The notes beneath the pieces were generated by a model. It was not told the DNA's origin. It saw only the letters and a program-made list of their open reading frames with translations, and ran no database searches. Of a stretch of DNA of 64,000 bases, positions 466 through 58,529 are shown piece by piece (the stretch's first letter is position 1; each line of letters begins with the position of its first letter). Position numbers and translations under genes: made by a program. The DNA comes from an uncultured virus (IMG/VR IMGVR_UViG_3300037296_000406) (lineage: Duplodnaviria; Heunggongvirae; Uroviricota; Caudoviricetes): the IMG/VR virus record IMGVR_UViG_3300037296_000406; one strand, given 5' to 3'.

Positions 466-526
466 AGAAAAAGTATACCCATTAATTATTATTAAGTTTA
501 ATTTATAAAAGATCATTGTTTTTAAT

Positions 527-555
527 TTGCTTTATTCTGAGAATAAGTATATTAT
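527..555 (+). promoter_or_regulatory. Sigma70-like promoter for the histone gene
   Basis: TTGCTT (527-532), 17 nt, TATTAT (550-555); strong SD AAGGAGG before ATG 586. Confidence 0.5.
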
Positions 556-585
556 ATAAATACATATCATTTATAAGGAGGAATC

Positions 586-780
586 ATGAGTGATGAAAAA
601 AAAGTATCTTTAGTAGTAAATTCAAAAGTTAAAAAGCTGGTAGCAGATAAACATGGTCTTAGATGTTCTGCAGAAGTTATGGATACTCTTACTAAAAAAG
701 TAGAAGAAATTCTTGAGTCTGCCGCAACAAAAGCAAAAGATTCTAAAAGAAAGACTATTAAGTCAGTCGACTTAGATTAA
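586..780 (+). CDS. Bacterial histone-fold protein, Bd0055/HBb-like singlet
   Basis: 64 aa. LVVNSKVKKLV...SAEVMDTLTKKVEEILESAATKAKDSKRKTIKSVDL matches the Bdellovibrio histone pattern (LVVTSKVKKLI...SAE...RKT), including the histone-fold RKT motif. Strong SD. Confidence 0.9.
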   Translation: MSDEKKVSLVVNSKVKKLVADKHGLRCSAEVMDTLTKKVEEILESAATKAKDSKRKTIKSVDLD

Positions 781-1721
781 ATTACTTTAGAAGAAGAGTC
801 TTTTCGTAGGCTCTTCTTATTAAAAACTCCTGATAAAATATGAGTAATCATATCAACAGTAAATCCATTACCTAACATTTTATATCTTTGAGTATTTGAT
901 ATGCCTTCAACTTGAGAGTAGTTATCTGGTACAGTTTGACACCTTTCGCATTCTAATGGCGTGATATATCTAGGACCATTGATATCTGTTACTTGAAAAA
1001 ATCTTTGAGCTGAATACTTCTTGTGCATACTAGCTTCCAAACATTGCATTTTTATTTTTGGAGTATTCATTTCTTTTAATTTTTTATTTTTAGCTTTACC
1101 ATGTCTATCTAACCAAGATAACGCTGCAGGGCTGTAATAGAAATTATTCGCTACAGGTTTTTTTTCCATAATATCTTGAAAATAGATATTCTTATCTTTT
1201 GGAGGTTTTATATCAGGAATATTAGTCCAATATAACCTAGGTCTACTTTGTGCTGTTATAAGTTTTGAGTTTATAAGAATAGGCTCAACTCCCAATTCTT
1301 TAGATATAATATCTTGAAATTCTTGTTTCATATTAACATTTTCTAACAAAAAATATTTTGGTTTTAATTCTTTAACAATACGAACATATTCAAAAAAGAG
1401 TTTACTTCTAGGGTCTTCAAAATTTAATTGTTTACCACTAAAGCTAAAACCTTGACAAGGGCTTCCACCTATAACCAAATCAACACTAGTTACATCAAAT
1501 ATACCTTTTTCTGTTTCTAGTTTTTTTCTTTTGTACTTAACTTTAGTAACATCACCTATTTGATTTATCTCAGGATAATTTGATTGAGCGACTTTTATTG
1601 AATATTTATCTACTTCTGAGGCAAAGTAATTAATCTGACTATCTTTAAATCCCATTTTAGAAAATGCTATTCTCGTACAGGCCATACCATCAAATAAACT
1701 AACTATATTAATTTTTTTCAT
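777..1721 (-). CDS. dcm: DNA (cytosine-5) methyltransferase, no cognate endonuclease nearby
   Basis: Motifs SLFDGMA (I), GGSPCQGFS (IV, catalytic PC), LLENV (VI), QSRPRLYW (VIII), RYKMLGNG (X). Start moved from 1763 to MKKIN at 1721. Confidence 0.93.
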   Translation of the reverse strand: MKKINIVSLFDGMACTRIAFSKMGFKDSQINYFASEVDKYSIKVAQSNYPEINQIGDVTKVKYKRKKLETEKGIFDVTSVDLVIGGSPCQGFSFSGKQLNFEDPRSKLFFEYVRIVKELKPKYFLLENVNMKQEFQDIISKELGVEPILINSKLITAQSRPRLYWTNIPDIKPPKDKNIYFQDIMEKKPVANNFYYSPAALSWLDRHGKAKNKKLKEMNTPKIKMQCLEASMHKKYSAQRFFQVTDINGPRYITPLECERCQTVPDNYSQVEGISNTQRYKMLGNGFTVDMITHILSGVFNKKSLRKDSSSKVI

Positions 1722-3259: not shown

Positions 3260-4780
3260 ATGTCAACTAAAGAAATTAACAAAGAACTTATTATTACTGC
3301 TAAAAAACTTTTAAAAGAAAAAGGTTATGAAGTTAAGAATTCACATTTGTATGATGTTTTCGCACAATTATCAGGTCATAAAAATTGGCATATTGCCTCA
3401 AAAAAGAATCAAAATCTAACAGAAATATTAAATCAGGATCTTATAAATAAATCTAGGTTTAATTTAGATTTAAGTTTTCTCAAGGCAGGTGATGATATCC
3501 CTTTTACTTTTTTTGATAATAGATTACCTGCTTGGAATATGTCTATTGCAGGTCAAACGGGATCAGGGAAGTCTATATTGCTAAAGAAAATGATAAACAA
3601 TGAGGTAAATAAAGATCCAAATCTTGTTGTGAGAATTTACAATCAAAATGAAAAAGAATATTCAAACTTTGCAAAATCATTAGGTGGAAAATCTATTAAC
3701 TTTACACCCGATTGTAGATATTCAATTAATTTTTTTGAGATAAATCCAAACAAATCTTATCCAAATAAAGAGAAAAAAAATATAATAAAACAATTATTAA
3801 CCAAATATAGTGTAGATGAAAATAAAATAGATAATCTAATTTATAATTATTATATGTCTATTTATAATGAAAATTTAGAAAATAGAGATCAGGTTTTTAA
3901 AAAAATATTTAAATTTAATATAACTTCGGAAATTAAATCAATAATATCATTGAAAGAAGGAGATTGTGAACCTATGCCTTATGGATTATTACAATTAAAA
4001 ATGATTTTAGATTCTTTTGTTCCAGAAAATTATAAAATATTAAAGAATAAAAATGGATTGGACAAGATTATGGATGAGTTTTTAAAAGATGTTTATAATC
4101 AAGTTGGGAATACATATTCACGATACCCATCAATTTCAGATTTCTTTCTTTACTTAAGAGATGAAAAACTTGATCCTTATTTTCAAAAAGTTAAAGAATG
4201 CTTGAATAGAAACGATGGTTTTATTAAATTTGGCTATAAAACAGATAAAGTTTTTGATGAGAAAATTTTATCTATATCTTTTAAGGGCTTAGAGCAAAAT
4301 AATGAATTATATGGAATGTATAAACAAATTGTAGTTTTATTTCTAGACATGAAATTAAAAAGCTTGGAATGTGATGTTAGAAAGATTAATGCATTTGATG
4401 ATATATGGGAAGCTAGTCCTAAAAGTAATTGGAATCCTATTTTTCATAATATTTTAGGAACTTCTAGAAGAAATAATATAGGAAACATTTCATGTGTTCA
4501 GTCATTATCTGATTATTATATGATTGATGAAAATGAGGGGAGAGGTATTTTAAAAAACTTTCAAAAAATCGTTCAAGGAAAAACAAATTCTAAAATTACA
4601 GATATTTTTTTTAAAAAAGAATTTGGTTTTATTGATGAAGATTTAGAATTATTTGAAAAATATTGTGGAATTAGTCATAGCACAGAAGGTACTGGTTTTT
4701 TATTAATACATGAATATATATTATCTCCATTTCGGTTAAAAGTAACTCCAACTGAATATAATAAATTTACAGATTATTAA
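3260..4780 (+). CDS. VirB4/TraC-like P-loop ATPase domain fused to a small N-terminal helical (Glyoxalase_8-like) domain
   Basis: Walker A GQTGSGKS, INFFE, Walker B-like NAFDDIW, SRRNNIGNISCVQS. N-terminal AKKLL...SHLYDVFAQLSGHKNWHIA pattern. Confidence 0.7.
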   Translation: MSTKEINKELIITAKKLLKEKGYEVKNSHLYDVFAQLSGHKNWHIASKKNQNLTEILNQDLINKSRFNLDLSFLKAGDDIPFTFFDNRLPAWNMSIAGQTGSGKSILLKKMINNEVNKDPNLVVRIYNQNEKEYSNFAKSLGGKSINFTPDCRYSINFFEINPNKSYPNKEKKNIIKQLLTKYSVDENKIDNLIYNYYMSIYNENLENRDQVFKKIFKFNITSEIKSIISLKEGDCEPMPYGLLQLKMILDSFVPENYKILKNKNGLDKIMDEFLKDVYNQVGNTYSRYPSISDFFLYLRDEKLDPYFQKVKECLNRNDGFIKFGYKTDKVFDEKILSISFKGLEQNNELYGMYKQIVVLFLDMKLKSLECDVRKINAFDDIWEASPKSNWNPIFHNILGTSRRNNIGNISCVQSLSDYYMIDENEGRGILKNFQKIVQGKTNSKITDIFFKKEFGFIDEDLELFEKYCGISHSTEGTGFLLIHEYILSPFRLKVTPTEYNKFTDY

Positions 4781-8864: not shown

Positions 8865-10016
8865 CTATTTCTTAAAGTTGCTATTACTAATAACTCTTCC
8901 TTTAAATAGATTATTCGGATAAATATTATCTCGAAGCCAATCTTTCTCTGTTTCAGATTCGCTCTCAGATACATAAGTGTACCATGCTCTACTGTCTTTA
9001 TTCCACATATAACCACGAGCTTTTAAAAAATCTTTTGTTTCATAAGGAGTATTGTCTGCAAAAATAATATATTCTTTTACTGTTTTCAAGTTACTGTCAA
9101 TATTTAAAACTTTCTTATTATCACTTTTAGTTTTAGAAAGAACAGTTAAATCTTTAAATCTATTTTTAGAATTCAAAACAACTTTTTCAACAGTCGTTGA
9201 TTTATATTTTGCTAATTTAGTAGTTAATTCATTTTCTATTTTTAGACATTCGGATTCATCTCTAAAGTACTTGTACCAAAATTTAGTATTAGCTTCCCAC
9301 ATAAAGTTGTGAAGATTGAAAATAGATTTTGAATCAAAAGGTGTATTTTTCGCTATTAGAAGGTATTCTTTATTATCAATATTATTATTTAAGTATTGAA
9401 AATACGTCATATCTTCGAGAGGTGTATTTTGTTGTAATAATTCAGCTAAAGCTTTAGTATCATTAATCGCTCTGTGTCCTACAAAATAAAATCCATGATA
9501 TTCACATAAAGATTCTTGATTTTTTTTAGGGAAATTCCAGTCATCCCAATCTAAATCTTTGATAGAGCAAGTCCAAGGAATATCTTTTAATGAATCTATT
9601 TTTTCTTCAACAAAAGGTCTGTCAAATTTACTATTATGTGCAACACAAAAATCTACACTTTCCATATCCTTATCAACTTCATCCCAATCTATTTTCTGAC
9701 CTTCTAGATCTTTATCAGTAATTCCTGTAATACGGATTATTTGTTCATCAAGTTTCTCTTGAGGATCTTCTAAACCGTTAAACTCTTTTAACACTTTTAC
9801 AATTTTACCTGTTTTCATAGAAACTTGTAATTTTAAATATCCGAGTTCTATTATTTTATGTTCTTTAGAGTTTAAACCTGTAGTCTCAACATCAATAACT
9901 AAAATGGTCTTTAGATCTATTATATCGTTGGGACTTAATGATAAACCTACAAAGGGCTTTATTAATATACATCCGTCTTCTTGTAATCCAATTCTTCTAT
10001 ATCTTAGCTTTTCCAT
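8865..10016 (-). CDS. DEDDh 3'-5' exonuclease (DnaQ-like) with two C-terminal repeat domains
   Basis: ExoI IDVETTG, ExoII AHNSKFD, ExoIII HRAINDT; two NTP(F/Y)..K......W.....WY units. Confidence 0.9.
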   Translation of the reverse strand: MEKLRYRRIGLQEDGCILIKPFVGLSLSPNDIIDLKTILVIDVETTGLNSKEHKIIELGYLKLQVSMKTGKIVKVLKEFNGLEDPQEKLDEQIIRITGITDKDLEGQKIDWDEVDKDMESVDFCVAHNSKFDRPFVEEKIDSLKDIPWTCSIKDLDWDDWNFPKKNQESLCEYHGFYFVGHRAINDTKALAELLQQNTPLEDMTYFQYLNNNIDNKEYLLIAKNTPFDSKSIFNLHNFMWEANTKFWYKYFRDESECLKIENELTTKLAKYKSTTVEKVVLNSKNRFKDLTVLSKTKSDNKKVLNIDSNLKTVKEYIIFADNTPYETKDFLKARGYMWNKDSRAWYTYVSESESETEKDWLRDNIYPNNLFKGRVISNSNFKK

Positions 10017-10675: not shown

Positions 10676-10757
10676 ATTTATTAAATGGAAAAAAGCACTC
10701 CATGATTTATATTTTTGTTGAATTATTCCATTTAAAATTCTAAATAAGGGGTAAAAG

Positions 10758-13004
10758 TTGGGATATATATTAGTAATCGTTGAATCGCCATCAAAAGCAA
10801 AAACAATAGAGAAGTATTTAGGAAAAGATTATAAAGTAATTGCATCAAAAGGTCATATTTATGATCTACCTCCAAAAGAGCTTGGTATCGATTTACACAA
10901 TAACTTCAAAGAAACTTTGGTAGCGATAAAAGGAAAAGAAGACACTATCAAGTATATAAAGAAGATGGCTAAAGGAGCAGATAAGATTTTACTTGCGCCC
11001 GATCCAGATAGAGAAGGGGAAGCTATTGGTTTTCACCTAAAAAAGGCTGTTGGTTCATCTAAAGAGATTGCTAGAGTTACTTTTAATGCGATTACAAAAG
11101 AAGTTGTACAACATTCTGTAAAAAACCCCACTGAACTCAATAAAAATATGTATGCTTCTCAAAAGACTAGAAGAATTCTAGACAGATTAGTAGGATATAA
11201 AGTTTCTCCCATTCTCTGGGATAAAATTGCAACTGGACTAAGTGCAGGTAGAGTTCAGTCTGTCGCATTAAGAATTATTGTAGAAAGAGAAGATGAAATC
11301 AAAGCATTTAATCCAGAGAAATGGTTTTCTTTAACTGCTACATTAAATAAAGGACAAATTTTCGAAAGTAAATACTTTGGTAAAAACGCTAAAGATAAGA
11401 ATGTATTAAGTGATAAAGAAGAAGTTGAAGCTATTGTTAAAGACATAAAGGATAAACAATTTAAGTTAGTCAGTTCAACAACTAAAGATAAAATCCAAAG
11501 TCCAACTCCTCCATTTACGACTTCTAAATTACAACAAGAAGCTTCAGCTAAATTAGGTTTCTCAGCTAAATTAACTATGCAAATTGCACAAAAGCTTTAT
11601 GAAGGAAAGAGTCTTAAAAATCATGGAACTCATGGTTTGATTACTTATATGAGAACAGATTCTGTTCGAACAGATGATAAAACATTAGATGGACTTAGAG
11701 AATATATTTTAGAAAATTATGGAAAAGAATTATTGTCAGAAGATAAAATAATACATAAAAAGAAAGGTTCTGGTGATGCGAAGACTCAAGACGCCCATGA
11801 ATCAATTAGACCTGCATCATTAAAATTCAAGCCTGATGATATTAAAGATGATTTATCTGAAGAAGAGTACAAATTATATAACCTTATTTGGAATAAGTTC
11901 GTAACATCTCAAATGGCATCGGCTATTATTGAAAACACTACTTATATTTTTGACTGTGCTGGTCACCACTTTAAGACTAGTGGTAATGTTTTAAAATTCT
12001 CTGGATTTAAGACTGTTTACGATGAAGAAAAAAAAGAAAAAAAATCTAAGAAAGGTGAAGATGATAATGAGGAATCTAATGCGGAACTTCCTTTAATAAT
12101 TCAAGATGAATTAGTTAATCAAGAAAAAGATGCAATATCAAAAGAGAATCTAACTTCTCCTCCAGCAAGATATAGTGAAGCAACTTTAGTAAAAGAGTTA
12201 GAAGATAAAGGCGTTGGTAGACCAAGTACATATGCGGCTATTATTGAAAACATTAAAAATAAAAAATATGTAGAACATTTTCAGAAAAGATTTAGACCAA
12301 CAGAACTTGGTGAAGTTTTATGTAAAATGTTAATTAAATATTTTCCATTAACTTTCGATGTTAAGTTTACAGCTAAAATTGAAAAAGAACTTGACTCTAT
12401 AGAAGAAGGTACTGAGAAGTGGACTGAAGTTTTAAATAATTTCTGGAATGGTCTTCATGAAAAAATAAATGAAGCATATCAAAAAATGCCATCGTTAAAA
12501 CCTTTAGGAATTCCAACTGGTCAAGAATGCTCAAAGTGTGAATTGGGTAAGTTAACTTTTATTTGGAAAAAAAATATTTCATTTCTAGATTGCGATAGGT
12601 GTGAATATTCTTCAAAAGCTGAACTTGAAAAAATTGGTCATTTTAAAGAAAAGTCTCTTGGTGCCAATCAAAAACCTTGTATTAAATGTGGTGGAATTAT
12701 GGAAATAAAAAGTGGTAAATATGGAGAATTTTGGGCATGTACAAACTATCCAGATTGTAAAAAAACTATGCCAGTTACTACGGGGGTAAAATGTCCTCAA
12801 TGTAATAAGGGCGAATTCGTCAAGAAAGTTTCAAAAAAAGGAAATACATTTTGGGGATGTTCTAATTTCCCTAATTGTAAAAGCGTACTTTGGGGAGAAC
12901 CCGTAGTTCAAGCTTGTGTCCACTGCAGACATCCTTTATTATATAAAGATAATAGAAGCGGAAAACTACAATGCGCTAGTGCTCAATGTAAGAAATATAA
13001 TTAA
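10758..13004 (+). CDS. topA: DNA topoisomerase I (type IA) with C-terminal zinc ribbons
   Basis: VIVESPSKAKTI, DPDREGEAI, SAGRVQS, catalytic LITYMRTDS, GVGRPSTYA, C4 Zn ribbons; TTG start with SD. Confidence 0.97.
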   Translation: MGYILVIVESPSKAKTIEKYLGKDYKVIASKGHIYDLPPKELGIDLHNNFKETLVAIKGKEDTIKYIKKMAKGADKILLAPDPDREGEAIGFHLKKAVGSSKEIARVTFNAITKEVVQHSVKNPTELNKNMYASQKTRRILDRLVGYKVSPILWDKIATGLSAGRVQSVALRIIVEREDEIKAFNPEKWFSLTATLNKGQIFESKYFGKNAKDKNVLSDKEEVEAIVKDIKDKQFKLVSSTTKDKIQSPTPPFTTSKLQQEASAKLGFSAKLTMQIAQKLYEGKSLKNHGTHGLITYMRTDSVRTDDKTLDGLREYILENYGKELLSEDKIIHKKKGSGDAKTQDAHESIRPASLKFKPDDIKDDLSEEEYKLYNLIWNKFVTSQMASAIIENTTYIFDCAGHHFKTSGNVLKFSGFKTVYDEEKKEKKSKKGEDDNEESNAELPLIIQDELVNQEKDAISKENLTSPPARYSEATLVKELEDKGVGRPSTYAAIIENIKNKKYVEHFQKRFRPTELGEVLCKMLIKYFPLTFDVKFTAKIEKELDSIEEGTEKWTEVLNNFWNGLHEKINEAYQKMPSLKPLGIPTGQECSKCELGKLTFIWKKNISFLDCDRCEYSSKAELEKIGHFKEKSLGANQKPCIKCGGIMEIKSGKYGEFWACTNYPDCKKTMPVTTGVKCPQCNKGEFVKKVSKKGNTFWGCSNFPNCKSVLWGEPVVQACVHCRHPLLYKDNRSGKLQCASAQCKKYN

Positions 13005-13589: not shown

Positions 13590-14384
13590 ATGAGTACGAA
13601 AATAATTTCATTAGTAAATCAAAAAGGTGGTGTAGGTAAAACTACAAGTTCTATTAATATCGCTAGTGCATTATCTAAGAGAGAAAAAAAAGTCTTGTTA
13701 ATTGATTTAGACCCTCAAGGAAATTGTTCTACTGGTTTAGGTGTTAAGAAAGAACTTTTTCACTCAGCAAATATATATCACTGCTTATTGGGATCCAAAA
13801 ATATTAAAGACTGTATTTATTCAACTTCTAATGATTTATTAGATCTTATGCCTTCCGATATAAATCTTTCTGCGACTGAATTAGATTTAGCTAATGAAAT
13901 GGCTAGAGAATCTCGACTAAAAAACTCTTTAGAAGAAATAAAAGGTGTATATGATATAATTATAATTGATTGTCCACCATCTTTAAGTTTACTTACAATC
14001 AATGCCCTAAATGCTAGTACTCACTATATAGTTCCTATGTTGCCTGAGATGTATTCACTAGAAGGATTCTCTCATATTCAACGAACCACTCAAAAAGTTC
14101 AACAATTTTTAGGAAATCCTATTATAAATTTAGGTGTTCTACTTACTATGGTTGATAAAAGAAATAATCTACATAAAGAAATGAGTACTTATTTAAGAAA
14201 CAATATTAAATCTTATATGTTTGAAAATGTAATACCTAGAAACATTAAATTATCAGAAGCTGTTAATTTTGGAAAAAGTATTTTTGATTATAATAAAAAA
14301 GCAATAGGAGCTTTAGCCTATGAATTAGTAGCTGAAGAGTTGCTTAATCAAGTTGGTGAAGATAAAGAGGATAATAATGAATAA
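13590..14384 (+). CDS. parA: ParA/Soj partition ATPase
   Basis: Deviant Walker A NQKGGVGKTT, IDLDPQGN, IIDCPPSL, IPRNIKLSEA. Confidence 0.96.
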   Translation: MSTKIISLVNQKGGVGKTTSSINIASALSKREKKVLLIDLDPQGNCSTGLGVKKELFHSANIYHCLLGSKNIKDCIYSTSNDLLDLMPSDINLSATELDLANEMARESRLKNSLEEIKGVYDIIIIDCPPSLSLLTINALNASTHYIVPMLPEMYSLEGFSHIQRTTQKVQQFLGNPIINLGVLLTMVDKRNNLHKEMSTYLRNNIKSYMFENVIPRNIKLSEAVNFGKSIFDYNKKAIGALAYELVAEELLNQVGEDKEDNNE

Positions 14385-15234
14385 AAAAAGTTTGATTGGT
14401 AATGGTGTAAATAGTTTCTTTAATCAAGAAAATGATGCTTCAACTCCTGAGGGAGACTCTCTAGTAGAATTAGATGTTGATTTAATTATAGAAAATGAAT
14501 TTCAGCCGAGAACAGCTTTTGATGATGATAAAATTCTTGAACTAAGTCATTCAATAAAAGAAAATGGAATACTCCAACCTCTTACTGTAATAATAAATAA
14601 AGAAGGGAAGTATGAATTAATTGCCGGAGAAAGAAGGCTTAGGGCTTCTCGTCTAGCTGGATTAGAAAAAGTTCCTGTTATAATTAAAAACAATGTTACT
14701 TCTGAAAATAGGAGTTTACTTGCTATATTAGAGAATCTTCAAAGAGAAGATCTTAACTGTGTTGAACTAGCCGTATCTTATAAAAAGACTATGAGTGATT
14801 TTAAATTAAGTCAAGAACAATTATCTCAGAAATTGGGAGTTGCTAGAGCGAGCATAGCGAATTCACTCAGAATACTTAACTTGCCAGAAAAGGTTCTTGG
14901 ATATCTAGAAAAAGGTAAAATAAGCTTAGGTCATGGTAAAATTCTTGCAGGATTAAAAAGCACTGAGCAATGTATTTCTCTTGCAGAAAAAGTTGTTTAT
15001 GGAGAACTATCCGTAAAAAAATTATCAGAATTACTCAAAAAAGATTCTTTAAAAAATCAACCCACTAATGAAAGTATTTCAAATATTAAGTATAAAGAAC
15101 AGCAAAAAGAATTAATTATGTCAACAGGATTAGCTTTTGAAATCAAAGATAAGAAAGATGCTGGTGGAAAAATAGTTTTACACTTTAGTAATGATGAAGA
15201 ACTTAAGAAAATATTAGAATCTTTTTCTAAATAA
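14377..15234 (+). CDS. parB: ParB/Spo0J partition protein
   Basis: FQPRT, GILQPL, IAGERRLRA (CTP-binding arginine patch), ENLQREDLN, HTH. Start moved to ATG 14377 with SD GAGG, overlapping the parA end. Confidence 0.96.
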   Translation: MNKKSLIGNGVNSFFNQENDASTPEGDSLVELDVDLIIENEFQPRTAFDDDKILELSHSIKENGILQPLTVIINKEGKYELIAGERRLRASRLAGLEKVPVIIKNNVTSENRSLLAILENLQREDLNCVELAVSYKKTMSDFKLSQEQLSQKLGVARASIANSLRILNLPEKVLGYLEKGKISLGHGKILAGLKSTEQCISLAEKVVYGELSVKKLSELLKKDSLKNQPTNESISNIKYKEQQKELIMSTGLAFEIKDKKDAGGKIVLHFSNDEELKKILESFSK

Positions 15235-15236
15235 TA

Positions 15237-15818
15237 TTATTTTTTATTTAAATAATTAACTAAATAAATTGCAGCAGATTGTGAAGTACCTCTGAGGCTC
15301 TGAATACAATCGTTATCATTGTCTTTATCTTCTTTTATAACTTTATTTCCAAAATTTGAATAATTTTCACTATTTCCTATACAATATAAATTTTCAATAT
15401 TATATACACATGGATATACCTTGTGTATATCTATATTTTTTTTATCGTTGCCAGAAGACACAATAATTTTAATACCTAAATTACTCGCTAGATCAATTAA
15501 ATATTTTTCTTTTTTTGATTCTTTTTCTCCACTACTTGTATAGACAATATAGTCAACTTTAGATGCTATAGCTTCTTTTAAAGATTTTATTCTTCCATCA
15601 AATGTATTTTTGTGATTTAAGCTAATAATCTTAATGTTTTTATTAAACTTAGTTAATATACAAGCTATGTCGGTTCCATGATAATCATCAATCTTAGATT
15701 CTAATCCTATAACTTGTTTTTGAATATCTTCGTTTAAAGGATAAACTCCAGTATCTATAAGAGCTACTGTTTGAGCTTGTGCTAAGGTGATCATTGTCAT
15801 CATTATAATTATTATCAT
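15237..15818 (-). CDS. Minimal subtilisin-like (S8) serine protease, probably secreted
   Basis: Triad motifs VALIDTG, HGT and GTSQSA, plus oxyanion SSGN. Signal-like N-terminus from an ATG near 15818 (start uncertain). Confidence 0.8.
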   Translation of the reverse strand: MIIIIMMTMITLAQAQTVALIDTGVYPLNEDIQKQVIGLESKIDDYHGTDIACILTKFNKNIKIISLNHKNTFDGRIKSLKEAIASKVDYIVYTSSGEKESKKEKYLIDLASNLGIKIIVSSGNDKKNIDIHKVYPCVYNIENLYCIGNSENYSNFGNKVIKEDKDNDNDCIQSLRGTSQSAAIYLVNYLNKK

Positions 15819-15960
15819 AAATTGTATATACCTCAAAAATATTAAATTAATTAAAATTATATAATGATCTTTCATATAATATTTTCTTTATACAAAAAAT
15901 AAAAATATTCTTTTTTTTACCCATTTAGATTTTAATAATTAAATTGATAAGGAGATTTAA

Positions 15961-16347
15961 ATGGCTAAGAAAAAAGTAAATGGTTACAAGTACAAGATGT
16001 TAAAACCTGCAGACTATGACATGTTGAAAGGAATGACTCAAGAAGAGTTAGAAAAATCTTTTGTTAAAGCAAGAAAAAATGAACAGGCTGCTAAGAAAAA
16101 TAAAAAAGAAGATGAAGATTTAGTTGCTCTTAATGATAAAATTAAAAAGTACCGTTCAGAGAACATGCCAAAAAAGGTAAGTGAACTTCAAGATGAAATT
16201 AAAGAAATAAAAAAAGAAGTGGACGTTGATATTTACGATGAGCTTGAAGATAAAAAAGCATTATCAAAAGGTCATTCAAATATTGTAAAAGAATTTACTG
16301 AAACACAATCCGCAATATTAGAAATATTGAGAATGAGAGAAATTTAA
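15961..16347 (+). CDS. Hypothetical charged coiled-coil protein
   Basis: 128 aa; SD AAGGAG; CCATTTA at 15921-15927. Confidence 0.75.
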   Translation: MAKKKVNGYKYKMLKPADYDMLKGMTQEELEKSFVKARKNEQAAKKNKKEDEDLVALNDKIKKYRSENMPKKVSELQDEIKEIKKEVDVDIYDELEDKKALSKGHSNIVKEFTETQSAILEILRMREI

Positions 16348-16354
16348 AATATTT

Positions 16355-16378
16355 AGCCCTCTTAGTTGAGGGTTTTTT
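16355..16378 (+). terminator. Intrinsic terminator
   Basis: AGCCCTC-TTAGTT-GAGGGTT followed by a T-run. Confidence 0.7.
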
Positions 16379-17282
16379 ATTTTTTTAAATTTATATCTTT
16401 TAATCTTTCGTTCAACAATTTTTCAGCATTAATCTCTTCGTACTTTTCACCATCGCCTCTACAGCTATCGATGCACTTTAATGTTGCTTTTGGATTTGGA
16501 TGACAAAAAAATGGCATAGAGAACCTTCTATTGTTTTTATCTGAAGGATTTACAACTCTATGTGTTGTTGCTTTGAATTCATCATTAGTAATTCTAGTTA
16601 ACATGTCTCCAGAGTCAATAATTAAATAATTATAATTAGCTTCTATTGGAATCCAAACACCATCTTTCCCTAGTATCTCAAGACCTGTCTCCGAGGCTCC
16701 GGGCATAATTGTTATTAAGTTTATGTCTTCGTGTGCAGAAGCCCTTACATGACCCTTTTTAGCGTCTTTACCATCTAGTGGAGGATAATGAATGATTCTT
16801 AATACCGAATTCATATTAGTCATAATTTCTTTTAAATATTCTGGTGAAGTATCTAATCCTTTACCTAATAAAGCTTCTAATAAAATTTCGCTCATATTAT
16901 ACATTTGTCGATAGAGTTCTTTCATTGTTTTATTAAATTTAATATCATCTGTCCAAATATTTTTTATAGAGGTATGACTTAAAGCATCTTCATTGACGAC
17001 CTGAAAAAACTCTTTTAGATCATACCTTTTACTATCTTTTGCTTTTTCTATTCCAAAAGGAATATATCCCGATTGGAGAATCTTTTTATTTTTAAACTTA
17101 TTTTTATATTCAGTAGTTTTTAAAAAAAATTTTTCTACTTCTTTATATGAGTCAGAAATTAACTTGTCAGAAATAGGATGGTTTTTCATTATAACAAAAC
17201 CTGTATCTCTAAGACCTGTTTTTAAATCGTTGATAAAATGTTTTTCTTTACAATCTAAATAATCTAATGTTAAAACTTTCAA
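16377..17282 (-). CDS. 2-oxoglutarate/Fe(II) dioxygenase, isopenicillin-N-synthase-like family
   Basis: TGFVIMKNHPI, LRIIHYPP, HED...H iron triad, RFS motif; TTG start with SD AGGAG. Confidence 0.92.
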   Translation of the reverse strand: MKVLTLDYLDCKEKHFINDLKTGLRDTGFVIMKNHPISDKLISDSYKEVEKFFLKTTEYKNKFKNKKILQSGYIPFGIEKAKDSKRYDLKEFFQVVNEDALSHTSIKNIWTDDIKFNKTMKELYRQMYNMSEILLEALLGKGLDTSPEYLKEIMTNMNSVLRIIHYPPLDGKDAKKGHVRASAHEDINLITIMPGASETGLEILGKDGVWIPIEANYNYLIIDSGDMLTRITNDEFKATTHRVVNPSDKNNRRFSMPFFCHPNPKATLKCIDSCRGDGEKYEEINAEKLLNERLKDINLKK

Positions 17283-17736: not shown

Positions 17737-20454
17737 TTATACTTTTTTTACATCTCTTTTTCTGACTATAGAAATCTCTTTTCTGGTAATCTTATTGTGA
17801 CAAGAGCCACATATCATCATTAAGTTATCTTTATGGTTAATATGTTTTTTTATTCCATTAATAATAACTTCTTTAATTTGACCTTGTTTTTGATCAATTA
17901 TATGATGAGTCTCTTGAACAGGATTATTATCACATAAAGGACAGATAATACCCCTCACGTTAGAATTATATCGACTCTTCTTCAAAGGAGCATACTTCTT
18001 GTTATAATTTTTTGCAACACGTATCAAATCTTCAGGTAATCCACATGATAAAGCGACATCGATTCCATAAGAACCTTCACCAACACCATCAACTAATTTT
18101 CGAGTAAAAGATAACTTTCCAATGTTATCAATATAAGTATCCATATTTTTAATACATATATTATCGTACTGAATTAGTTTTGGTCCCATTTTATGATAAT
18201 GAGTCGCAAAAAAAGTCAAACCTTTATTATCTTCTTTCGATAAGTAATCTAAAGTAGAGAACGCTAACGCTTCGCCATCTTCAGCAGAAGTTCCCCTTCC
18301 TATCTCATCGAATAAAAATAAAGATCGTTGTTCTGTATATCTTAATGATTCATTTAACTCTTTCATCTCCATTGTAAATGTAGATAACCCTTCAGACAAA
18401 GAATCGTATGTTGTCATTCTTGTGAGAATATTTTGAAAAGTTGTTAATTCAGAACCTTTATCTGAGGAAATAAAGCAACCAATTTGAGCCATTATTATAT
18501 TCAGAGCTAAAGCTTTTAATACAGTTGATTTACCAGAAGAGTTTGCTCCGTAAATACACATAATATCTTTATCTTTATCAAAAAAAATATCATTTGGAGT
18601 ATATTCTTCTTCTAATCTAAAGTTATTTTCAACAACAGGGTGCCTTAAATTTTTTATGTTCAAAAATGAGTGTTCACTTTCTATTAATGTAGGCTTGTTG
18701 TAATCTCTTTCTTGAGATATTCTAGCAAAGTTATTTAAAACATCTACCTTAGAAATTTCTTCACTTATAGAATGTAAATCTTTTCCAAATAATTCTGATA
18801 CCTTGGACAAGAACAATCTCCACTCTTTAAAAGCTTTCATTTTATATCTTTGCATATCTAAAAAAGCTTTGTTGGATACGTTAATCCATTCATCATCAAT
18901 AACTTCAACTTCAGATGCTAGAATTTTAAAACTTACTATTTGATTCAGTTTTTTTGTTTTACAATTAAAACTTTTAGGACCCTTTAGTTTATAGCTTTCT
19001 TTAGTTTGTATTATCTCTTTAAATTTTTTCTTATTATCTATAAGAAATTCTTGTGCTTTAATATCATATTCTTTTTTTAAAGAATTCATATCTTCATGTG
19101 ATTTTTCCCACTTTTCTTTTCTTTCTAGTAGAGATTTTGCAAAATCTCCTTTAAAATAAAGATAACTATTTTCAGTCTCTAAAGAAAGTTCCTCGAAGTC
19201 TATATTTTCACTAAGATACTTTATTATTGTATCAACTGTTTTATGGGTTTCATTATTTTCTGTCTTTAATATTGAATGAATGCTTAATAGACTACTATAT
19301 AGATTAGATATATCCATAGGGTCTATAGTACCTAAAAAAATTCTTCTTGACATTCTTGCGATATCATAAACTTTTTTAAGCTCTTTATAATCTGTTTTAT
19401 TTTTAATATATTTTTCAACAACAGTATATCTAGCTTCAATCTCATCGATATTAATGAGAGGCTCTCTTAACCACTCTCTAAGTTTCCTTCTACCCATAGC
19501 AGTATAACACTTATCTAAGCAGTAAGCTAAAGAGTCTTCTTCAGAACCTGATTGATTTTCGAATACCTCTAAAGATTTTAAACCGTTCATAGGAATAAGA
19601 AGATGATTAGTTTTGTTATATATTTCTGGTTCTGATAGTTTTCTTAATAGAGAAGTACTGTATTCTGTAGAAGATAAGTGGTCTACGAGATTAGCTAAAG
19701 ATAATGTAGCAAAACGCCATTTATCCAATCCTAATGTAGATATATGATATTCAGGGTTCGATGTTGGTGTATCAAGATTGTACAAGTGAGAAAGAACTCT
19801 CCCTGAGTCAGCTAAGTTTTTAATATTCATCTTACTCTTATTGTGAACAAATTTAAATTTCTTTGTATTTATTTTTAAATCCCCAAAAACAAGAATCTCT
19901 GTTGGATTAAAATTATTTAAATAATCGTTCAAATCTTGTTCTAATATTTCCGTAACCTTAACTGCACCAGTACTCAAGTCAACGAGAGATATTCCTATAA
20001 TGTTATCTTGTTTAATTAAGCATGCATAGTAATTATTTTTCTCTTCAGATAAGTTTTCAACGATTGTTCCCGGAGTAAGAATCTTCTCAATAAATCTTGG
20101 CACTCCTTTATTCTGATCGGATTTTCTTCCATTTATTTTTTGTGAAACTACTATAACAGTATTTCCATTGTTTACTAATTTTTTAAAATAAAAATCTGAT
20201 ACAGAAACATTAAATCCGCACATCGCTGGACTTTTAGGGTCTGCTTTATTTCTTTTTGTTTTCTTAATATCTAATATTCTATGAGCTTTTTCAACATGAC
20301 CTAATTCGTTCTTAGACCATATTTCATAAAAATCTCCTACTTGGTAACATATTATTGCTTCTGGATTTTTATACTGTATAGAGAAGTAGTGTTGATACAT
20401 TGGAGACAATGCTTGAAACTCTTTAGGTAAAATTAAAGATTCTTTTTCACTCAC
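17737..20454 (-). CDS. mutS: MutS-family ATPase with C-terminal HNH endonuclease (MutS7-like)
   Basis: Mismatch motif QVGDFYE, TAMGRRKL, RHPVVE, Walker A GANSSGKST, STFTMEM, DEIGRGTS, FATHYH. C-terminus CPLC...ETHHI...NL..ICGSCHN. Confidence 0.93.
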   Translation of the reverse strand: MSEKESLILPKEFQALSPMYQHYFSIQYKNPEAIICYQVGDFYEIWSKNELGHVEKAHRILDIKKTKRNKADPKSPAMCGFNVSVSDFYFKKLVNNGNTVIVVSQKINGRKSDQNKGVPRFIEKILTPGTIVENLSEEKNNYYACLIKQDNIIGISLVDLSTGAVKVTEILEQDLNDYLNNFNPTEILVFGDLKINTKKFKFVHNKSKMNIKNLADSGRVLSHLYNLDTPTSNPEYHISTLGLDKWRFATLSLANLVDHLSSTEYSTSLLRKLSEPEIYNKTNHLLIPMNGLKSLEVFENQSGSEEDSLAYCLDKCYTAMGRRKLREWLREPLINIDEIEARYTVVEKYIKNKTDYKELKKVYDIARMSRRIFLGTIDPMDISNLYSSLLSIHSILKTENNETHKTVDTIIKYLSENIDFEELSLETENSYLYFKGDFAKSLLERKEKWEKSHEDMNSLKKEYDIKAQEFLIDNKKKFKEIIQTKESYKLKGPKSFNCKTKKLNQIVSFKILASEVEVIDDEWINVSNKAFLDMQRYKMKAFKEWRLFLSKVSELFGKDLHSISEEISKVDVLNNFARISQERDYNKPTLIESEHSFLNIKNLRHPVVENNFRLEEEYTPNDIFFDKDKDIMCIYGANSSGKSTVLKALALNIIMAQIGCFISSDKGSELTTFQNILTRMTTYDSLSEGLSTFTMEMKELNESLRYTEQRSLFLFDEIGRGTSAEDGEALAFSTLDYLSKEDNKGLTFFATHYHKMGPKLIQYDNICIKNMDTYIDNIGKLSFTRKLVDGVGEGSYGIDVALSCGLPEDLIRVAKNYNKKYAPLKKSRYNSNVRGIICPLCDNNPVQETHHIIDQKQGQIKEVIINGIKKHINHKDNLMMICGSCHNKITRKEISIVRKRDVKKV

Positions 20455-20934: not shown

Positions 20935-21603
20935 TTATCTTTCTGTTCTTAATTTAGGTCTCAAAAAATATTCTAAACCTTTTGAGTTATCTTCCATAAT
21001 AAGCGTACCGTTAGGAAATCTTATTATTTTTAAACTATGTGTAGTAAATGGAAAAGAACACGTTTCTTGAGGAGATAAATTTACATTTTCTACAGTAGGA
21101 TATAAATTTACATTTTCTACAGTTAAGTCAAATTGATACGTTCTTATTTCTTCAATAATATCATTAGGGTCTATTGAGTCAGTTCCATTATTAGGATTAT
21201 AAGGGTCTAAAATGCTATAATTAACATCCTCTACACTAATTACATTTGAATTATCAGATCCAACTGAAACAAAACTTAAGTCAAACTTCCCATCCCAAGT
21301 TCCTGAGCATTCCTCTATTGATTTTAGCCAAGTATAGTTTACTAATTTAAACACAAAAGTACCTTCAATTAAACTAGGAATAGAATCTTCATCTTCCAAA
21401 ATAACATTACTATCAAATTTTACATCCCTAGAACCGTCTATTTTAGTCCAAACCAATTCTCCAATAGGTCTTGCGCTTGTTGTTTCATAAACAACATCAA
21501 AAAAAGATTGTTGCTCAAACTCAGTTTTCTCTTCTTCAACTTCTTGACCGCAAGAGCCTAGTACTGTTAGTATTAGTATAATAAGTAAAAATTTAATCTT
21601 CAT
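20935..21603 (-). CDS. Acidic lipoprotein
   Basis: Lipobox LGSC; internal 9-aa duplication. Confidence 0.75.
   Translation of the reverse strand: MKIKFLLIILILTVLGSCGQEVEEEKTEFEQQSFFDVVYETTSARPIGELVWTKIDGSRDVKFDSNVILEDEDSIPSLIEGTFVFKLVNYTWLKSIEECSGTWDGKFDLSFVSVGSDNSNVISVEDVNYSILDPYNPNNGTDSIDPNDIIEEIRTYQFDLTVENVNLYPTVENVNLSPQETCSFPFTTHSLKIIRFPNGTLIMEDNSKGLEYFLRPKLRTER
21075..21123. repeat. 22-bp exact direct repeat, 27-bp period, in frame
   Basis: ATAAATTTACATTTTCTACAGT at 21075-21096 and 21102-21123, encoding TVENVNL twice. Confidence 0.9.
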
Positions 21604-21838
21604 CTTTTTTTTCTAATCCTTCATTAAATAATTTAACTGCAGAATCCCATTCTTCATCATTAACTCCTGCTTTCCTTCTTTCAAAAGTATTAACAATGTC
21701 AACATCTTGAATAATACATGAGAAAATCTTTTGAAATTCATCTTTTCGATGACCACCTGTTAATACCTTATCGTCTAAAATTTTTTCGATAAGAACTAGA
21801 AGTGGTTTCATTTTCTCTTGTTTACTCTCTAGATTCAC
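21593..21838 (-). CDS. Hypothetical protein
   Basis: 81 aa; GTG start; SD AGGGG; CCATTTA at 21857-21863. Confidence 0.7.
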   Translation of the reverse strand: MNLESKQEKMKPLLVLIEKILDDKVLTGGHRKDEFQKIFSCIIQDVDIVNTFERRKAGVNDEEWDSAVKLFNEGLEKKDED

Positions 21839-55097: not shown

Positions 55098-57107
55098 ATG
55101 GTTAAAGAAATTAAGAGAAAAACTAAAGTTAGCGAAGCTAAAATTGAAGAGAAAGACCAAAGATGGCACACTAGAAACAGAATCACTTTAGTTTTTGGAT
55201 CTAATGATTTAGAAAATTTAAGTACTTATTTATATGATAAAGATCTTAATATAGAGTTTAAGGAGTTAGATTTTCATCAGGCAAAATCAAAAGCTATTGA
55301 AGAATTGCTCGATAATTGCATTGATGAATTTTATAGAGGTCATGTTACTGAGGTTCATGTAGAACTAAAAAAAGATAAAAAAACTGTCGTTGTTCAAGAC
55401 AATGGAATTGGATTTCCTGTAAACAAGATAGTTGACGTTTACTCTAAGTTTAGAACAGGTTCTAAATTTAAAGATGAGGGTTTAGATAAAAAAGGCTTTC
55501 TTAATCGTACTTTAGGTCAAAATGGTCTAGGCGCCGCGGCGACATGCTTAACTTCTGATTACTTTAAAGCAACAGTTAGGCATCACAACTCAAAAAAAGA
55601 ACAGACAGTTGAGTTTATAGATGGTGCTCTTAAGACAAAAAATTCTAAAGTTAAAAAATACAGAGGAGCTTCTGGAGTTAAAATTGAACTACAACTATCT
55701 ACTGAAGTATATAAAGACAATATTATAGATGAGCAATTATTAAGAAAAAGAATAATTGATTTAACTTATAACAACCCCGGATTAGTCTTTTATTTCAATG
55801 AAGAAAAATTTGTATCTAAAAAAGGATTAAGTGATTTAGCAATGATGGTAGATAAACAGACAGGTCAAACTCTGGGAGAAGATACTTTTATTCAAGAAGT
55901 TAAATTACAGAATAAAAAAGGTACAGCGAAAGGTAAGTATGATGTCTCAATATCAGTTGCTTACGAAACAAAATCTTATGAAAAAGAAAAGTTTATATCT
56001 TTCGTAAACTCTACACCTACATACGATGGTGGCTTTCATCATGACAGAGTAAAGCGAATATTTATAAATGAAGTTAAAGAAAAATTAAAAAGAGAAGCGA
56101 GTAAGAATAAAGTTGAATTAATGGATAGCGACATTGTTTCTGGTTTAGTTTTTATTATTGGGATAATTATGCCAAACCCTAGGTTTGAGTCTCAGACAAA
56201 AAGAAAACTTGTAAGAGATTGGCCTCTTGAAAAAAGTATTGAAGAATTAATTAAAGATAATATAGTTAAATTTTTCAAAAGAAACAAAGAATACTTAGAA
56301 GCTGTTATTGAAAGAGCTAAATCTAGAAATAAATTCGAAGTTTTAAAAGATGCATCAAAAATTGCAAAAAAAGTAAATAGTGCAAAAATCGCAAAACTCC
56401 TTGATGCTAATGAGAGAAAGGATAGAAGTAAATGTTCTTTATTTATCTGCGAAGGCGATTCTGCTATTGGTGGGTTAAGATCTTCTAGAGATAAACTCTA
56501 TCATGGAGGAATAGCGCTTAAAGGTAAGCCTATGAACGTTCTTCAGGCATCACTCAATGATATCCTTAATAATAAAGAATTCACTGATATAATGGGCTCT
56601 ATCGGTCTTACATTGGGTCAAAAAGCTGAGGGTAAGTCTTTAAGATTCGCTAATATTGTTTTTCTAGCAGATTCTGATGTTGATGGTGGACATATTAATA
56701 CACTTTTAACTAATTTCTTTTATAGATTTTGGCCTGAATTGTTTCACGAAGGTAGAATTCAGGTAACTAAAGCTCCTTTATTTGAGGTAGTTACTTCTAC
56801 TGGAAAAAGATTATTTGCGGAAAGCGATTCTGAGCTTGCTAATATTAAAAAAGACAAAAGGGTTACGATAAAAAACATTATGAGAAATAAAGGACTTGGT
56901 GAAATGAGCGATGAAGCTTGGACTTACATTTTGTCAAAAGATAAATACACTGTAATTTATTCTAATGATAAAGAAGAATCTACAGAGATGCTTGACATTT
57001 GTTTCGGAAAAGATGCACAGGCGAGAAAAGACTTATTACTTGCAAGTAATAAAGCAAATCCTAGTAAGTCAAAAAAAATAACTAAAAAGAAAGTAACTAA
57101 AAAATAA
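55098..57107 (+). CDS. Type IIA topoisomerase B subunit (GHKL ATPase plus TOPRIM)
   Basis: EELLDNCIDE, DNGIG, GQNGLG, FESQTK, EGDSA, LKGK, DSDVDG, RNKGLGEM. Confidence 0.95.
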   Translation: MVKEIKRKTKVSEAKIEEKDQRWHTRNRITLVFGSNDLENLSTYLYDKDLNIEFKELDFHQAKSKAIEELLDNCIDEFYRGHVTEVHVELKKDKKTVVVQDNGIGFPVNKIVDVYSKFRTGSKFKDEGLDKKGFLNRTLGQNGLGAAATCLTSDYFKATVRHHNSKKEQTVEFIDGALKTKNSKVKKYRGASGVKIELQLSTEVYKDNIIDEQLLRKRIIDLTYNNPGLVFYFNEEKFVSKKGLSDLAMMVDKQTGQTLGEDTFIQEVKLQNKKGTAKGKYDVSISVAYETKSYEKEKFISFVNSTPTYDGGFHHDRVKRIFINEVKEKLKREASKNKVELMDSDIVSGLVFIIGIIMPNPRFESQTKRKLVRDWPLEKSIEELIKDNIVKFFKRNKEYLEAVIERAKSRNKFEVLKDASKIAKKVNSAKIAKLLDANERKDRSKCSLFICEGDSAIGGLRSSRDKLYHGGIALKGKPMNVLQASLNDILNNKEFTDIMGSIGLTLGQKAEGKSLRFANIVFLADSDVDGGHINTLLTNFFYRFWPELFHEGRIQVTKAPLFEVVTSTGKRLFAESDSELANIKKDKRVTIKNIMRNKGLGEMSDEAWTYILSKDKYTVIYSNDKEESTEMLDICFGKDAQARKDLLLASNKANPSKSKKITKKKVTKK

Positions 57108-57128
57108 GTAACCAATACGGAGATAATT

Positions 57129-58529
57129 ATGAGTAAAGAAGACAACAAATCAATTAATAGTTTAGCTAAAATCAGTTTAAAGGATTTAGTTCAACAAGAA
57201 TACAGAATATATCAACTATATACGTTGATGGATAGAGCACTGCCTTATTTAAGAGATGGATTAAAGCCTTCTCAAAGAAGAATACTTTATACATTATTTA
57301 AAAATCAGAATAAAGGGTTACTTAAAGTTTCTTCTGCAACAGGATTAGTTCTATCTTTACATCCGCATGGACCAGCTTCTGTTGAATCTGCCATTGTTAA
57401 TTTAGCTCAAGACTATACATTTTCTAATAACTATCCTCTTGTTGAAAAGAAAGGATATTTTGGAGAAAGAATGGAGAACCAGCCTGCAGCTTCAAGATAC
57501 ATTGAATGTAAACTTAGTAGTATTTCTAAATTTTTATTATTTGATGATATGAATCAGGTTAATATGATTCCTAATTATGATGAACGAATGCTAGAACCTC
57601 AATCACTTTTACCTAAACTTCCATTAATGTTACTTAACGGTGCAGAAGGTATAGCGACAGGATACAGTTGTATGATACCATCATTCCACCATAAAGATAT
57701 TATTGATAGTATGATTGAGTTTGTTAAAACTGGTAAAGCTAAAAAAATTAAAGCTTGGGTTGATAACTATAAAGAAAATATTAAATATGATAAAGATAGA
57801 AACAGATACATATTTAACATGAAAATAGAAAGACTTAAGAAAAAAACTGGTGGTTTTGGATATTATATAACAGAGCTACCAAGAGGATATAATGCAACTA
57901 AAATAAATAATCACTTAAATAAATTAGTGGATGATGATTTTATAAAAGATTATATTGATAGTACTGTTAAGAACAATGTTATGATTGAATTAGTTTTTAA
58001 GAAAGGAAGCCGAATTAGTCTAGAAAATGTTATATCTCGAGTTAGTGCAACATCTACTCTAGTCCCTAACTACACATTAATCTCAGATGAGGGTGTTGAA
58101 GTTTTTGTTACTCCTGAATCTATTATAGAGATTTTCACAACTCAAAGATTAGGCGTTGTGAAAAGAAGATATGAACTGCTTTTAGAAGATGCTAAAAATA
58201 GAATTCAAAAGAATAATGAAATCATTAGATTTATTAAAGAAAAACATTATGATATAGCACAAAAGAAGCAAGATAAAGCTGACTATCTTAAGTATCTTAA
58301 AAGTAAAAAATTCGTTCATTATGATTATCTTGCAGAAATGAGTATATACAGAATGACTAAAGACGAAGTTTTAAAAAGAGCTTTAATGATTAAGGAAGAT
58401 TCTCCTAAAATAAAAGAATTTGAAGGTATTATTAAAAGCAAGAAAAAAATTCAAGATAAACTTTTTGAAGAACTTATAGAAGTTAAAGAAGTTTTAAGTA
58501 ATTTTTTAAGAGATAAAAATAGAAAATAA
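57129..58529 (+). CDS. Type IIA topoisomerase A subunit lacking the C-terminal pinwheel
   Basis: RALPYLRDGLKPSQRR, HPHG, catalytic AASRY, LLNGAEGIATG; only 466 aa. Confidence 0.95.
   Translation: MSKEDNKSINSLAKISLKDLVQQEYRIYQLYTLMDRALPYLRDGLKPSQRRILYTLFKNQNKGLLKVSSATGLVLSLHPHGPASVESAIVNLAQDYTFSNNYPLVEKKGYFGERMENQPAASRYIECKLSSISKFLLFDDMNQVNMIPNYDERMLEPQSLLPKLPLMLLNGAEGIATGYSCMIPSFHHKDIIDSMIEFVKTGKAKKIKAWVDNYKENIKYDKDRNRYIFNMKIERLKKKTGGFGYYITELPRGYNATKINNHLNKLVDDDFIKDYIDSTVKNNVMIELVFKKGSRISLENVISRVSATSTLVPNYTLISDEGVEVFVTPESIIEIFTTQRLGVVKRRYELLLEDAKNRIQKNNEIIRFIKEKHYDIAQKKQDKADYLKYLKSKKFVHYDYLAEMSIYRMTKDEVLKRALMIKEDSPKIKEFEGIIKSKKKIQDKLFEELIEVKEVLSNFLRDKNRK

Follow-up and report, generated by a model that had tools for sequence, protein, structure and literature searches.

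A 64-amino-acid (aa) open reading frame (ORF) near the left end of the IMG/VR record IMGVR_UViG_3300037296_000406 probably encodes an alpha3-truncated histone of the HBb/Bd0055, or "bacterial dimer", type with an HBb-like mode of action; we put the probability of this reading at about 80%. The stretch analyzed here, hereafter called the window, comprises 64 kb of a 518,954-bp contig, with a GC content of 24-34%. It was present in 12 DNA sequencing runs, all labelled as salt lake metagenome, and no RNA run was among those listed. A first-pass annotation had described the gene as encoding a Bd0055-like bacterial histone on a probable mobile element. Regarding the protein, sequence, fold and motifs all agreed with this description, as analyzed by phmmer against the Protein Data Bank (PDB), AlphaFold2 and Foldseek. 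Regarding the carrier, the description is plausible: roughly even odds were given to a conjugation-type accessory replicon or integrated element, somewhat lower odds to a chromosome, and low odds to a huge phage.

Sequence, fold and proposed action of the histone

The phmmer search of the PDB gave HBb as the best match (8cmp_A, E 3e-7; 8fvx_A, E 3.6e-7; 40% identity), followed by HLp (9qt0, 4.3e-4), HTkC (9f2c, 0.016) and archaeal HMf-type histones (>0.2). A profile built from 61 relatives scored the ORF at E 1.1e-27, in agreement with the 64-aa histone-fold singlet noticed previously, and the same profile found nothing else significant among 697 six-frame pieces of the window, where the next best piece scored E 0.097. 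An AlphaFold2 model from the 61-sequence alignment reached a predicted local distance difference test (pLDDT) value of 80.8 and contained helices at residues 12-23, 29-52 (24 residues) and 60-63. When this model was compared with Bd0055, as the first-pass annotation had suggested, the five best Foldseek matches in the PDB were all HBb entries, with template-modelling (TM) scores of 0.79-0.86, a root-mean-square deviation of 1.1-1.3 Å and 40-41% identity; HLp and HTkC came next.

Schwab et al. (2024, PMC11390915) describe the "bacterial dimer" category by kinship to HBb, the RKTxxxD motif, lysines in alpha1 and the absence of the R and N residues of face-to-face (FtF) histones. In the window protein, R55-K56-T57...D62 was present, and R55, T57 and D62 were at least 90% conserved in the 61 relatives. 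The alpha1 helix reads S13-K14-V15-K16-K17, with S13 and K16 conserved to the same degree. K49 and S53 stand where the FtF-like loci L038-L042 read RxxxNGRKT, the mapping of both residues to the published FtF numbering (PMC11390915) being our own alignment. In the AlphaFold2 model, alpha3 was cut to four residues and alpha2 was shortened, as in the "bacterial dimer" fold. The protein was therefore filed as an HBb-type histone, on the grounds of HBb kinship, the RKT...D motif, the alpha1 lysines and the lack of the FtF R and N. The HMMER alignment further placed R55 and D62 on R51 and D58 of HBb, which form the RD clamp, and the dimer-core residues L35/V39/I42 on L31/I35/L38, V15 on V11 and L63 on I59; the clamp and the core residues of HBb are described by Hu et al. 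(PMC11317129).

Some observations weigh against this assignment and its mode of action. All Pfam histone models remained below their gathering cut-offs, namely DUF1931 (PF09123; 21.0 versus 21.8), Histone (PF00125; 20.9 versus 26.4) and CBFD_NFYB_HMF (PF00808; 18.4 versus 21.4), and the NCBIfam and PHROGs scans gave no match for the histone. Thus, family membership rests on the PDB, profile and fold comparisons. The Pfam models under-call this family, as two chromosomal Bacteriovoracia histones scanned likewise fell below the cut-offs. The binding mode of HBb itself is disputed, with bending described in PMC11317129 and end-on coating in PMC10627809.

By analogy with the histone family, two copies of the protein would pair head-to-tail via alpha2 (L35, V39 and I42, plus V15 and L63). 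Binding of the dimer to DNA would show no sequence preference and would involve the alpha1 lysines K14, K16 and K17 and the L2 loop R55-K56-T57, which would be clamped to D62. HBb-like bending or coating of DNA may thereby make it a general packaging protein of its AT-rich replicon. A monocistronic gene with the strongest ribosome-binding site of the window would fit an abundant protein. We infer dimerisation, DNA bending and abundance from what is known of the family.

Two other roles were weighed against a general HBb-like packaging function. The protein could form a face-to-face tetramer that wraps DNA like the Leptospira histone, instead of a bending dimer. HLp of Leptospira perolatii is the next-best solved relative (TM 0.76-0.87), and DUF1931 was nominally the top Pfam match; HBb, however, scored ~1000-fold better, K49 and S53 occupy the positions of R and N in FtF-like sequences (FtF residues as given in PMC11390915), and the window protein fell apart from the FtF-like tree group (SH-aLRT support 99), so that we regard such a tetramer as very improbable. 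Less improbable, although still not favored, is a special role as an element-borne stealth or interference factor that forms heterodimers with host histones or silences the element, as plasmid H-NS and HU proteins may do. The conjugation-like gene context, the precedents of plasmid-borne nucleoid proteins and haloarchaeal plasmid histones (see below), and the two to three histone genes in each of the five nearest genomes of the lineage, so that partners would exist, all speak for it. Conversely, identity between the window protein and the histone folds of those genomes was no higher than 39-48%, and the element status of the carrier is no more than plausible. A general HBb-like packaging protein thus remains our preferred reading.

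Histone relatives and known systems

An exhaustive HMMER search of 1.84 billion representative proteins, with a threshold of E <= 1e-3, matched 89 proteins. Most were singlets of 55-86 residues or doublets of 114-162 residues with two matched stretches, and the relatives have LVVxSKVK...RKTxxxxD in common. The nearest ones were singlets with 69% and 62% identity, the former encoded on a contig of 15,698 bp. The nominal best match, P0003 (2733 aa, E 1.6e-16, 13 stretches), was considered as a histone multiplet and rejected as a repeat-driven false positive; this protein from a JGI contig of 222,917 bp is a subtilase/HYR/Ig-repeat surface protein that carries a T9SS sorting domain. Among 185,579 species genomes, pattern scanning gave 12 loci with a best identity of 49%, of which ten belonged to Nitrospirota, one to a Bdellovibrionales metagenome-assembled genome (MAG) and one to Promethearchaeota. 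Scanning of metagenomes gave 11 histone loci (best 47%), the sole match in a plasmid collection was an archaeal histone encoded by a Halalkalicoccus plasmid, and tblastn of the histone against 50,697 phage records gave no match. IMG/VR was scanned with a model built from five close sequences. Here, contig L001 (190 kb, 59% GC) encoded a histone 42% identical to the window protein, and the presence of rIIA, rIIB and helicase genes confirmed that this contig is a phage. The HBb-like histone gene of L001 (10001-10162) lies ~4 kb 5' of the rIIA-/rIIB-like genes (13866-17137), and the metagenome contig L017 (11 kb) encodes a near-identical histone behind the same phrog_26613 gene.

The five nearest genomes of the Bacteriovoracia class (G244, G096, G343, G139 and G250) each contained two or three histone genes, none of which was a bare singlet. 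Two histone types per genome were observed in these five (L033-L042). In the first, an HBb-like fold is preceded by additional N-terminal sequence, which in L036 and L037 shows a Cys/His zinc-finger pattern like that of the published ZZ histones. The second is an FtF-like fold (RxxxNGRKT), which in three of the five (G096, G244 and G343; L040-L042) is preceded by a Lys/Ala-rich tail similar to those of linker histones; this tailed type is also encoded by the Bdellovibrionales MAG G001 (L026).

A quick maximum-likelihood tree of 62 columns was calculated for 145 histone-fold domains; we regard it as weak, 84 of its 142 inner branches being unresolved. The window histone clustered with P0002 and P0005 (SH-aLRT 89), and this group was a weak sister (81) of nine sequences including the histone of phage L001. 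The FtF-like group split off at SH-aLRT 99, without the window histone. The window group was also apart from the branch with Bacteriovoracia, doublet and Nitrospirota sequences. With respect to the phylogeny against chromosomal copies proposed in the first-pass annotation, separation from the Bacteriovoracia branch was thus obtained, whereas for kinship with element-borne histones the sequences gave hints only.

Compared with HBb/Bd0055 of Bdellovibrio bacteriovorus HD100 (8cmp, 8fvx, 9ezz and 9f0e), the window protein is likewise a singlet (64 aa versus chains of 64-66) with three helices and a four-residue alpha3, an RKTxxxD loop with the RD clamp, alpha1 lysines and a hydrophobic dimer core, at 40-41% identity and within the same phylum, Bdellovibrionota. 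It differs in that its lineage is nearer to Bacteriovoracia than to Bdellovibrio, and in that the gene is set among partition, methylase and type IV secretion system (T4SS)-like genes. The L2 tail reads RKTIKSVD in the window protein and RKTVMARD in HBb, and HBb D49, to which PMC11317129 assigns an extra salt bridge, is replaced by S53. The histone type of the nearest named relatives is the doublet of Bacteriovorax/Halobacteriovoraceae, reported for Bacteriovorax by Marinov et al. (2025, PMC11789641). It shares the fold family, and each half is ~42% identical to the window protein (P0004). Unlike the bare singlet of the window, it has two folds per chain (127-150 aa), and its halves were not grouped with the window histone in the quick tree, with weak support.

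Plasmid-borne nucleoid proteins are an established theme, as exemplified by H-NS-like Sfh of R27, Pmr of pCAR1 and plasmid HU. If the carrier were conjugative, the window histone would resemble these in being an element's copy of the chromatin protein of the host lineage, although H-NS and HU belong to other protein families. FtF histones occur on haloarchaeal plasmids according to PMC11390915; these belong to another histone category and another domain of life. In Caudoviricetes, 84 bacterial-like histones, Bd0055-like ones included, are catalogued in bioRxiv 2024.12.06.627149 (also PMC13681535). Like the window gene product, these Bd0055-like viral histones (BBVH) are HBb-like singlets outside a recognised core chromosome, and L001 is a verified example. 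A C-terminal helix replaces the flexible end of HBb in BBVH, as stated in the preprint, whereas the window protein ends one residue past alpha3 (helix 60-63, with D64 as the last residue); also unlike BBVH, the 40 proteins scanned from the 64-kb window did not match any virion or packaging PHROG. A literature search gave no histone-fold protein on a bacterial megaplasmid or conjugative element in the titles or abstracts of the papers listed. Phage-encoded HBb-type histones and haloarchaeal plasmid histones have thus been described before, and a giant conjugative carrier with a DNA-maintenance set of its own, if proven, would be new.

The histone gene and its neighbourhood

The coordinates of the histone gene and of the main features around it are summarized in Table 1.

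Table 1. Features of the 64-kb window discussed in the text
Feature	Position	Strand	Remarks
Spacer, 69 bp	517..585	.	common to histone and divergent 171-aa ORF (1-516, -)
TCATTTAT	566-573		CCATTTAW copy with one mismatch, within the 517..585 spacer
Shine-Dalgarno TAAGGAGG	574..581	+	4 nt 5' of histone ATG
HBb/Bd0055-type histone gene (probable)	586..780	+	64 aa; alpha1 12-23, alpha2 29-52, short alpha3 60-63
C-5 cytosine DNA methyltransferase	777..1721	-	convergent; 314 aa from ATG at 1721
Hairpin	786..824	.	-16.2 kcal/mol, z -3.0; 1/200 shuffles equally good
VirB4/TraC/TraG-P-loop-like conjugative ATPase, ATPase half	3260..4780	+	506 aa
DEDD 3'-5' exonuclease	8865..10016	-	NF006615, 255.6 bits versus cut-off 207
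Topoisomerase I (TopA)	10758..13004	+	<=54% identical to chromosomal TopA of Bdellovibrionota
ParA, ParB	13590-14384, 14353-15234	+	
MutS7-like MutS	17737..20454	-	905 aa; without domain IV; C-terminal HNH-like Cys/His motifs
TrbI/VirB10-like protein	21924-24455	-	843 aa; C-terminal PF03743, 39.3 bits versus cut-off 35
VirB9/CagX/TraN-like ORF	24478-25530	-	350 aa; score 0.90, lead only
"T4-type" topoisomerase II, two subunits	55098..58529	+	669 + 466 aa; without GyrA C-terminal domain

The ATG at 586 is the earliest start downstream of the in-frame upstream stop. The Shine-Dalgarno (SD) sequence, previously called strong, was the sole 8-nt match among the 47 window genes compared, with matches of 7 nt in three genes and of zero in 14. 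The described overlap of the stop with that of the convergent C5 methyltransferase was also observed: TTAA at 777-780 contains the histone TAA on the plus strand (778-780) and the methylase TAA on the minus strand (779-777), two bases being common to both stops. In contrast, the sigma70-like promoter that had been proposed was not upheld, since a scan of 300-2000 gave 10 promoter-like sites compared with 10.3 +/- 3.4 in shuffles, and none of the 10 was located inside the spacer. A by-eye candidate, TTGCTT-17-TATTAT at 527-555, matches the -35 hexamer at 3/6 positions only and is uninformative because the DNA is 27% GC. The histone promoter must sit in the spacer, yet no site there was separable from chance. 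Downstream, the hairpin starts 6 nt past the histone stop, within the final methylase codons, and lacks a U tract; a terminator scan gave no sites. The hairpin may end or stabilise the transcripts of both convergent genes.

The methylase matched PF00145 (E 6.4e-42) and TIGR00675 (145 bits versus a cut-off of 100.65), and no restriction enzyme was recognised beside it in the library scans of the window, indicating an orphan methylase. The motif CCATTTAW occurred in 24 copies in the window versus 11.06 +/- 3.29 expected, a number that none of 100 shuffles reached; examples on the minus strand are 1728-1735, 10681-10688, 27708-27715, 39738-39745 and 60819-60826. About 13 copies share the orientation of a gene whose start codon lies 4-28 nt downstream. 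In five of them the gene has no SD and 4-7 nt separate the end of the motif from the ATG, the placement expected of a -10 element for leaderless transcripts.

The VirB4-like ORF is located 2.5 kb from the histone. Its NCBIfam match (E 1.7e-9) was far below the cut-off, while its Atlas feature score was 0.96 and its TM scores to TraC models were 0.67-0.71. The T4SS-like set is in two parts, with the VirB4-like gene at 3.3 kb and the VirB10-/VirB9-like genes 17 kb away, where they head a one-strand block with seven further ORFans (20935-30810, -). The DEDD exonuclease, TopA, ParAB and MutS genes lie between the two parts. The C-terminal motifs of the MutS, CxxC...H...CxxCH of the HNH type, are invariant, and the 905-aa protein is similar to MutS7, a subfamily known from giant viruses, octocoral mitochondria and epsilonproteobacteria. 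Relatives at 40-73% identity were found on short contigs only, one of which, of 25,376 bp, encodes a 69%-identical MutS together with a 73%-identical TopA; identity to canonical MutS was at most 29%. None of 401 Bdellovibrionota genomes contained this MutS type at E <= 1e-90, and in IMG/VR 35 loci matched at no more than 32% identity, among them giant-virus bins at 25-32%.

A run of giant ORFs (2048, 908, 737, 346 and 1610 aa) at 30810-47891 on the minus strand is adhesin-like. Their domains include tail-fibre-like segments in the 2048-aa ORF (phrog_33406, E 2.4e-27), fibrinogen-like GGGWT, choice-of-anchor D and MtsC-like repeats. We take these ORFs to recall the chimeric prey-recognition fibres of Bdellovibrio.

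The carrier and its lineage

The sequences suggest that this DNA is part of, or a long-standing companion of, an uncultured salt-lake lineage related to, but outside, the sampled Bacteriovoracia. This kinship is indicated by the identities of TopA, topoisomerase II and ParB. Proteins named Halobacteriovorax, Bacteriovoracaceae, Bacteriovorax and Bdellovibrionales shared 50-54% identity with TopA; of 401 genomes in the phylum, 392 gave matches, the best at 54%. The topoisomerase II pair was 62-66% identical to an adjacent chromosomal pair, which is single-copy beside a normal GyrA in all five nearest genomes and in G343 adjoins HU, MerR and type II secretion genes. The best identity among all 238 Bacteriovoracia genomes was 66%, and 39 of the 238 were listed at E <= 1e-280 with 63-66%. 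Such near-equal identity to the class members listed fits a sister lineage better than a recent capture. ParB was 43-47% identical to the single chromosomal ParB in 5/5 Bacteriovoracia genomes, and the reference ParB is located ~15 kb from gyrA in G343, G244, G096, G250 and G139. Canonical parS gave no match in the window at <=3 mismatches; this test discriminates nothing because the 3.7-kb ParB loci of three reference genomes were also without a match within 2 mismatches. Synteny with the two nearest genomes (2 x 60 kb) was limited, as matches among the 94 window ORFs were confined to both topoisomerase subunits and, weakly, an exonuclease.

The topoisomerase II initially gave phage-like scores (phrog_543, E 4.5e-134; phrog_551, E 5.3e-107). 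The notion that a T4-type topoisomerase II means a phage was nevertheless rejected, as the identity to phage enzymes was ~30% compared with 62-66% to the Bacteriovoracia chromosomal pair. The pair is presumably the topoisomerase IV substitute of Bacteriovoracia, and a T4-type topoisomerase II is unfit as a phage marker in Bdellovibrionota. A comparable topoisomerase II pair was observed at L043 15805-19486.

The gene content of the window was compared with that of a 60-kb chromosome region of G343 containing the NQR complex, HisRS, a type II secretion system and transporters. A Pfam family (E <= 1e-5) was found in 13 of the 46 window ORFs of at least 100 residues and in 41 of 56 ORFs of this control. 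The 64 kb contained no translation, energy, transport or envelope genes. There were also no tRNA genes and no Rfam families in the window, although at chromosomal densities neither absence is informative for 64 kb. MutS (24-27%) and RecJ (28-31%) were non-orthologous to the Bacteriovoracia genes, the TrbI-like protein and a 571-aa ORFan were found in none of the five nearest genomes, and the exonuclease and methylase had domain-level matches only in these genomes.

The mobile-element part of the first-pass annotation is therefore plausible in view of the conjugation-type genes, the orphan methylase, the ParAB-TopA set and a gene content unlike that of the control chromosome region. Several points weigh against it. 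Bacteriovoracia chromosomes have orthologues of TopA, of the two topoisomerase II subunits and of ParB, and TopA scored 674.8 bits with TIGR01051, above the chromosomal equivalog cut-off of 456.4. Library scans of the 64-kb window gave neither a relaxase nor a coupling protein, a replication initiator or an integrase. The GC content at third codon positions was uniform (0.13-0.26 across all 47 genes), so that nothing appears recently acquired. Lastly, a size of 519 kb is more often chromosomal.

These points are the main reasons for giving considerable weight, somewhat less than to an element, to a chromosomal origin of the contig, from a divergent and AT-rich relative of Bacteriovoracia. The gene would then be the resident Bd0055 orthologue, and the T4SS-like genes would be the organism's own or an old ameliorated island; this concerns the carrier only and not the action of the protein. 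The near-equal topoisomerase II identities to the class members listed and giant adhesin-like ORFs that suit a predator fit such a chromosome, and so does the presence of Bd0055 homologues in 67% of Bdellovibrionota genomes given in PMC10627809. The lack of core functions in 64 kb, the low Pfam coverage, the non-orthologous MutS and RecJ and the VirB4-, VirB9- and VirB10-like genes do not. Moreover, the nearest genomes use ZZ-fused or Lys/Ala-tailed histones instead of a bare singlet, and the pattern scan of species genomes found no close histone relative (best 49%). A huge phage whose histone packages or protects its DNA, as bioRxiv 2024.12.06.627149 proposes for Bd0055-like viral histones, is unlikely. 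The published Caudoviricetes histones, the AT-rich and ORFan-rich DNA, the tail-fibre-like segments and the sister position of phage L001 would suit it, the last in a tree of 62 columns that is largely unresolved. On the other hand, a scan of 40 window proteins (E <= 1e-5) gave no capsid, portal, terminase, tail tube or baseplate family, the topoisomerase II is native to the Bacteriovoracia chromosome, the histone had no match in the phage records, the IMG/VR relatives of MutS were all <=32% identical, and the T4SS parts are not phage genes.

Returning to the accessory replicon, we tentatively propose a more specific form of it, which we hold to be slightly less probable than a chromosome: the 519-kb contig may be a giant self-maintaining, conjugation-capable accessory replicon of halophilic Bacteriovoracia-like predators that carries its own chromatin protein and DNA toolkit. 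This toolkit would consist of TopA, the two-subunit topoisomerase II, the MutS7-type HNH enzyme, RecJ, the DEDD exonuclease, ParAB and the orphan C5 methylase. If true, the "own DNA toolkit" of giant viruses and Borg-like elements would have its counterpart in bacteria, and a conjugative replicon would for the first time be shown to carry a bacterial histone.

The characterisation of bacterial histones dates back only to 2023, and these proteins are patchily spread among bacteria. A histone on a conjugative giant replicon, if true, would provide a direct vehicle for this spread, and an element-borne gene would add histones to H-NS and HU in the rule that plasmids come with a nucleoid protein of their own. 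If the gene is chromosomal, it would represent a bare-singlet variant in a lineage in which the sampled relatives have doublets, zinc-finger fusions or Lys/Ala-tailed histones. Such a variant would not be surprising, but it would be useful for tracing the origin of histone architectures.

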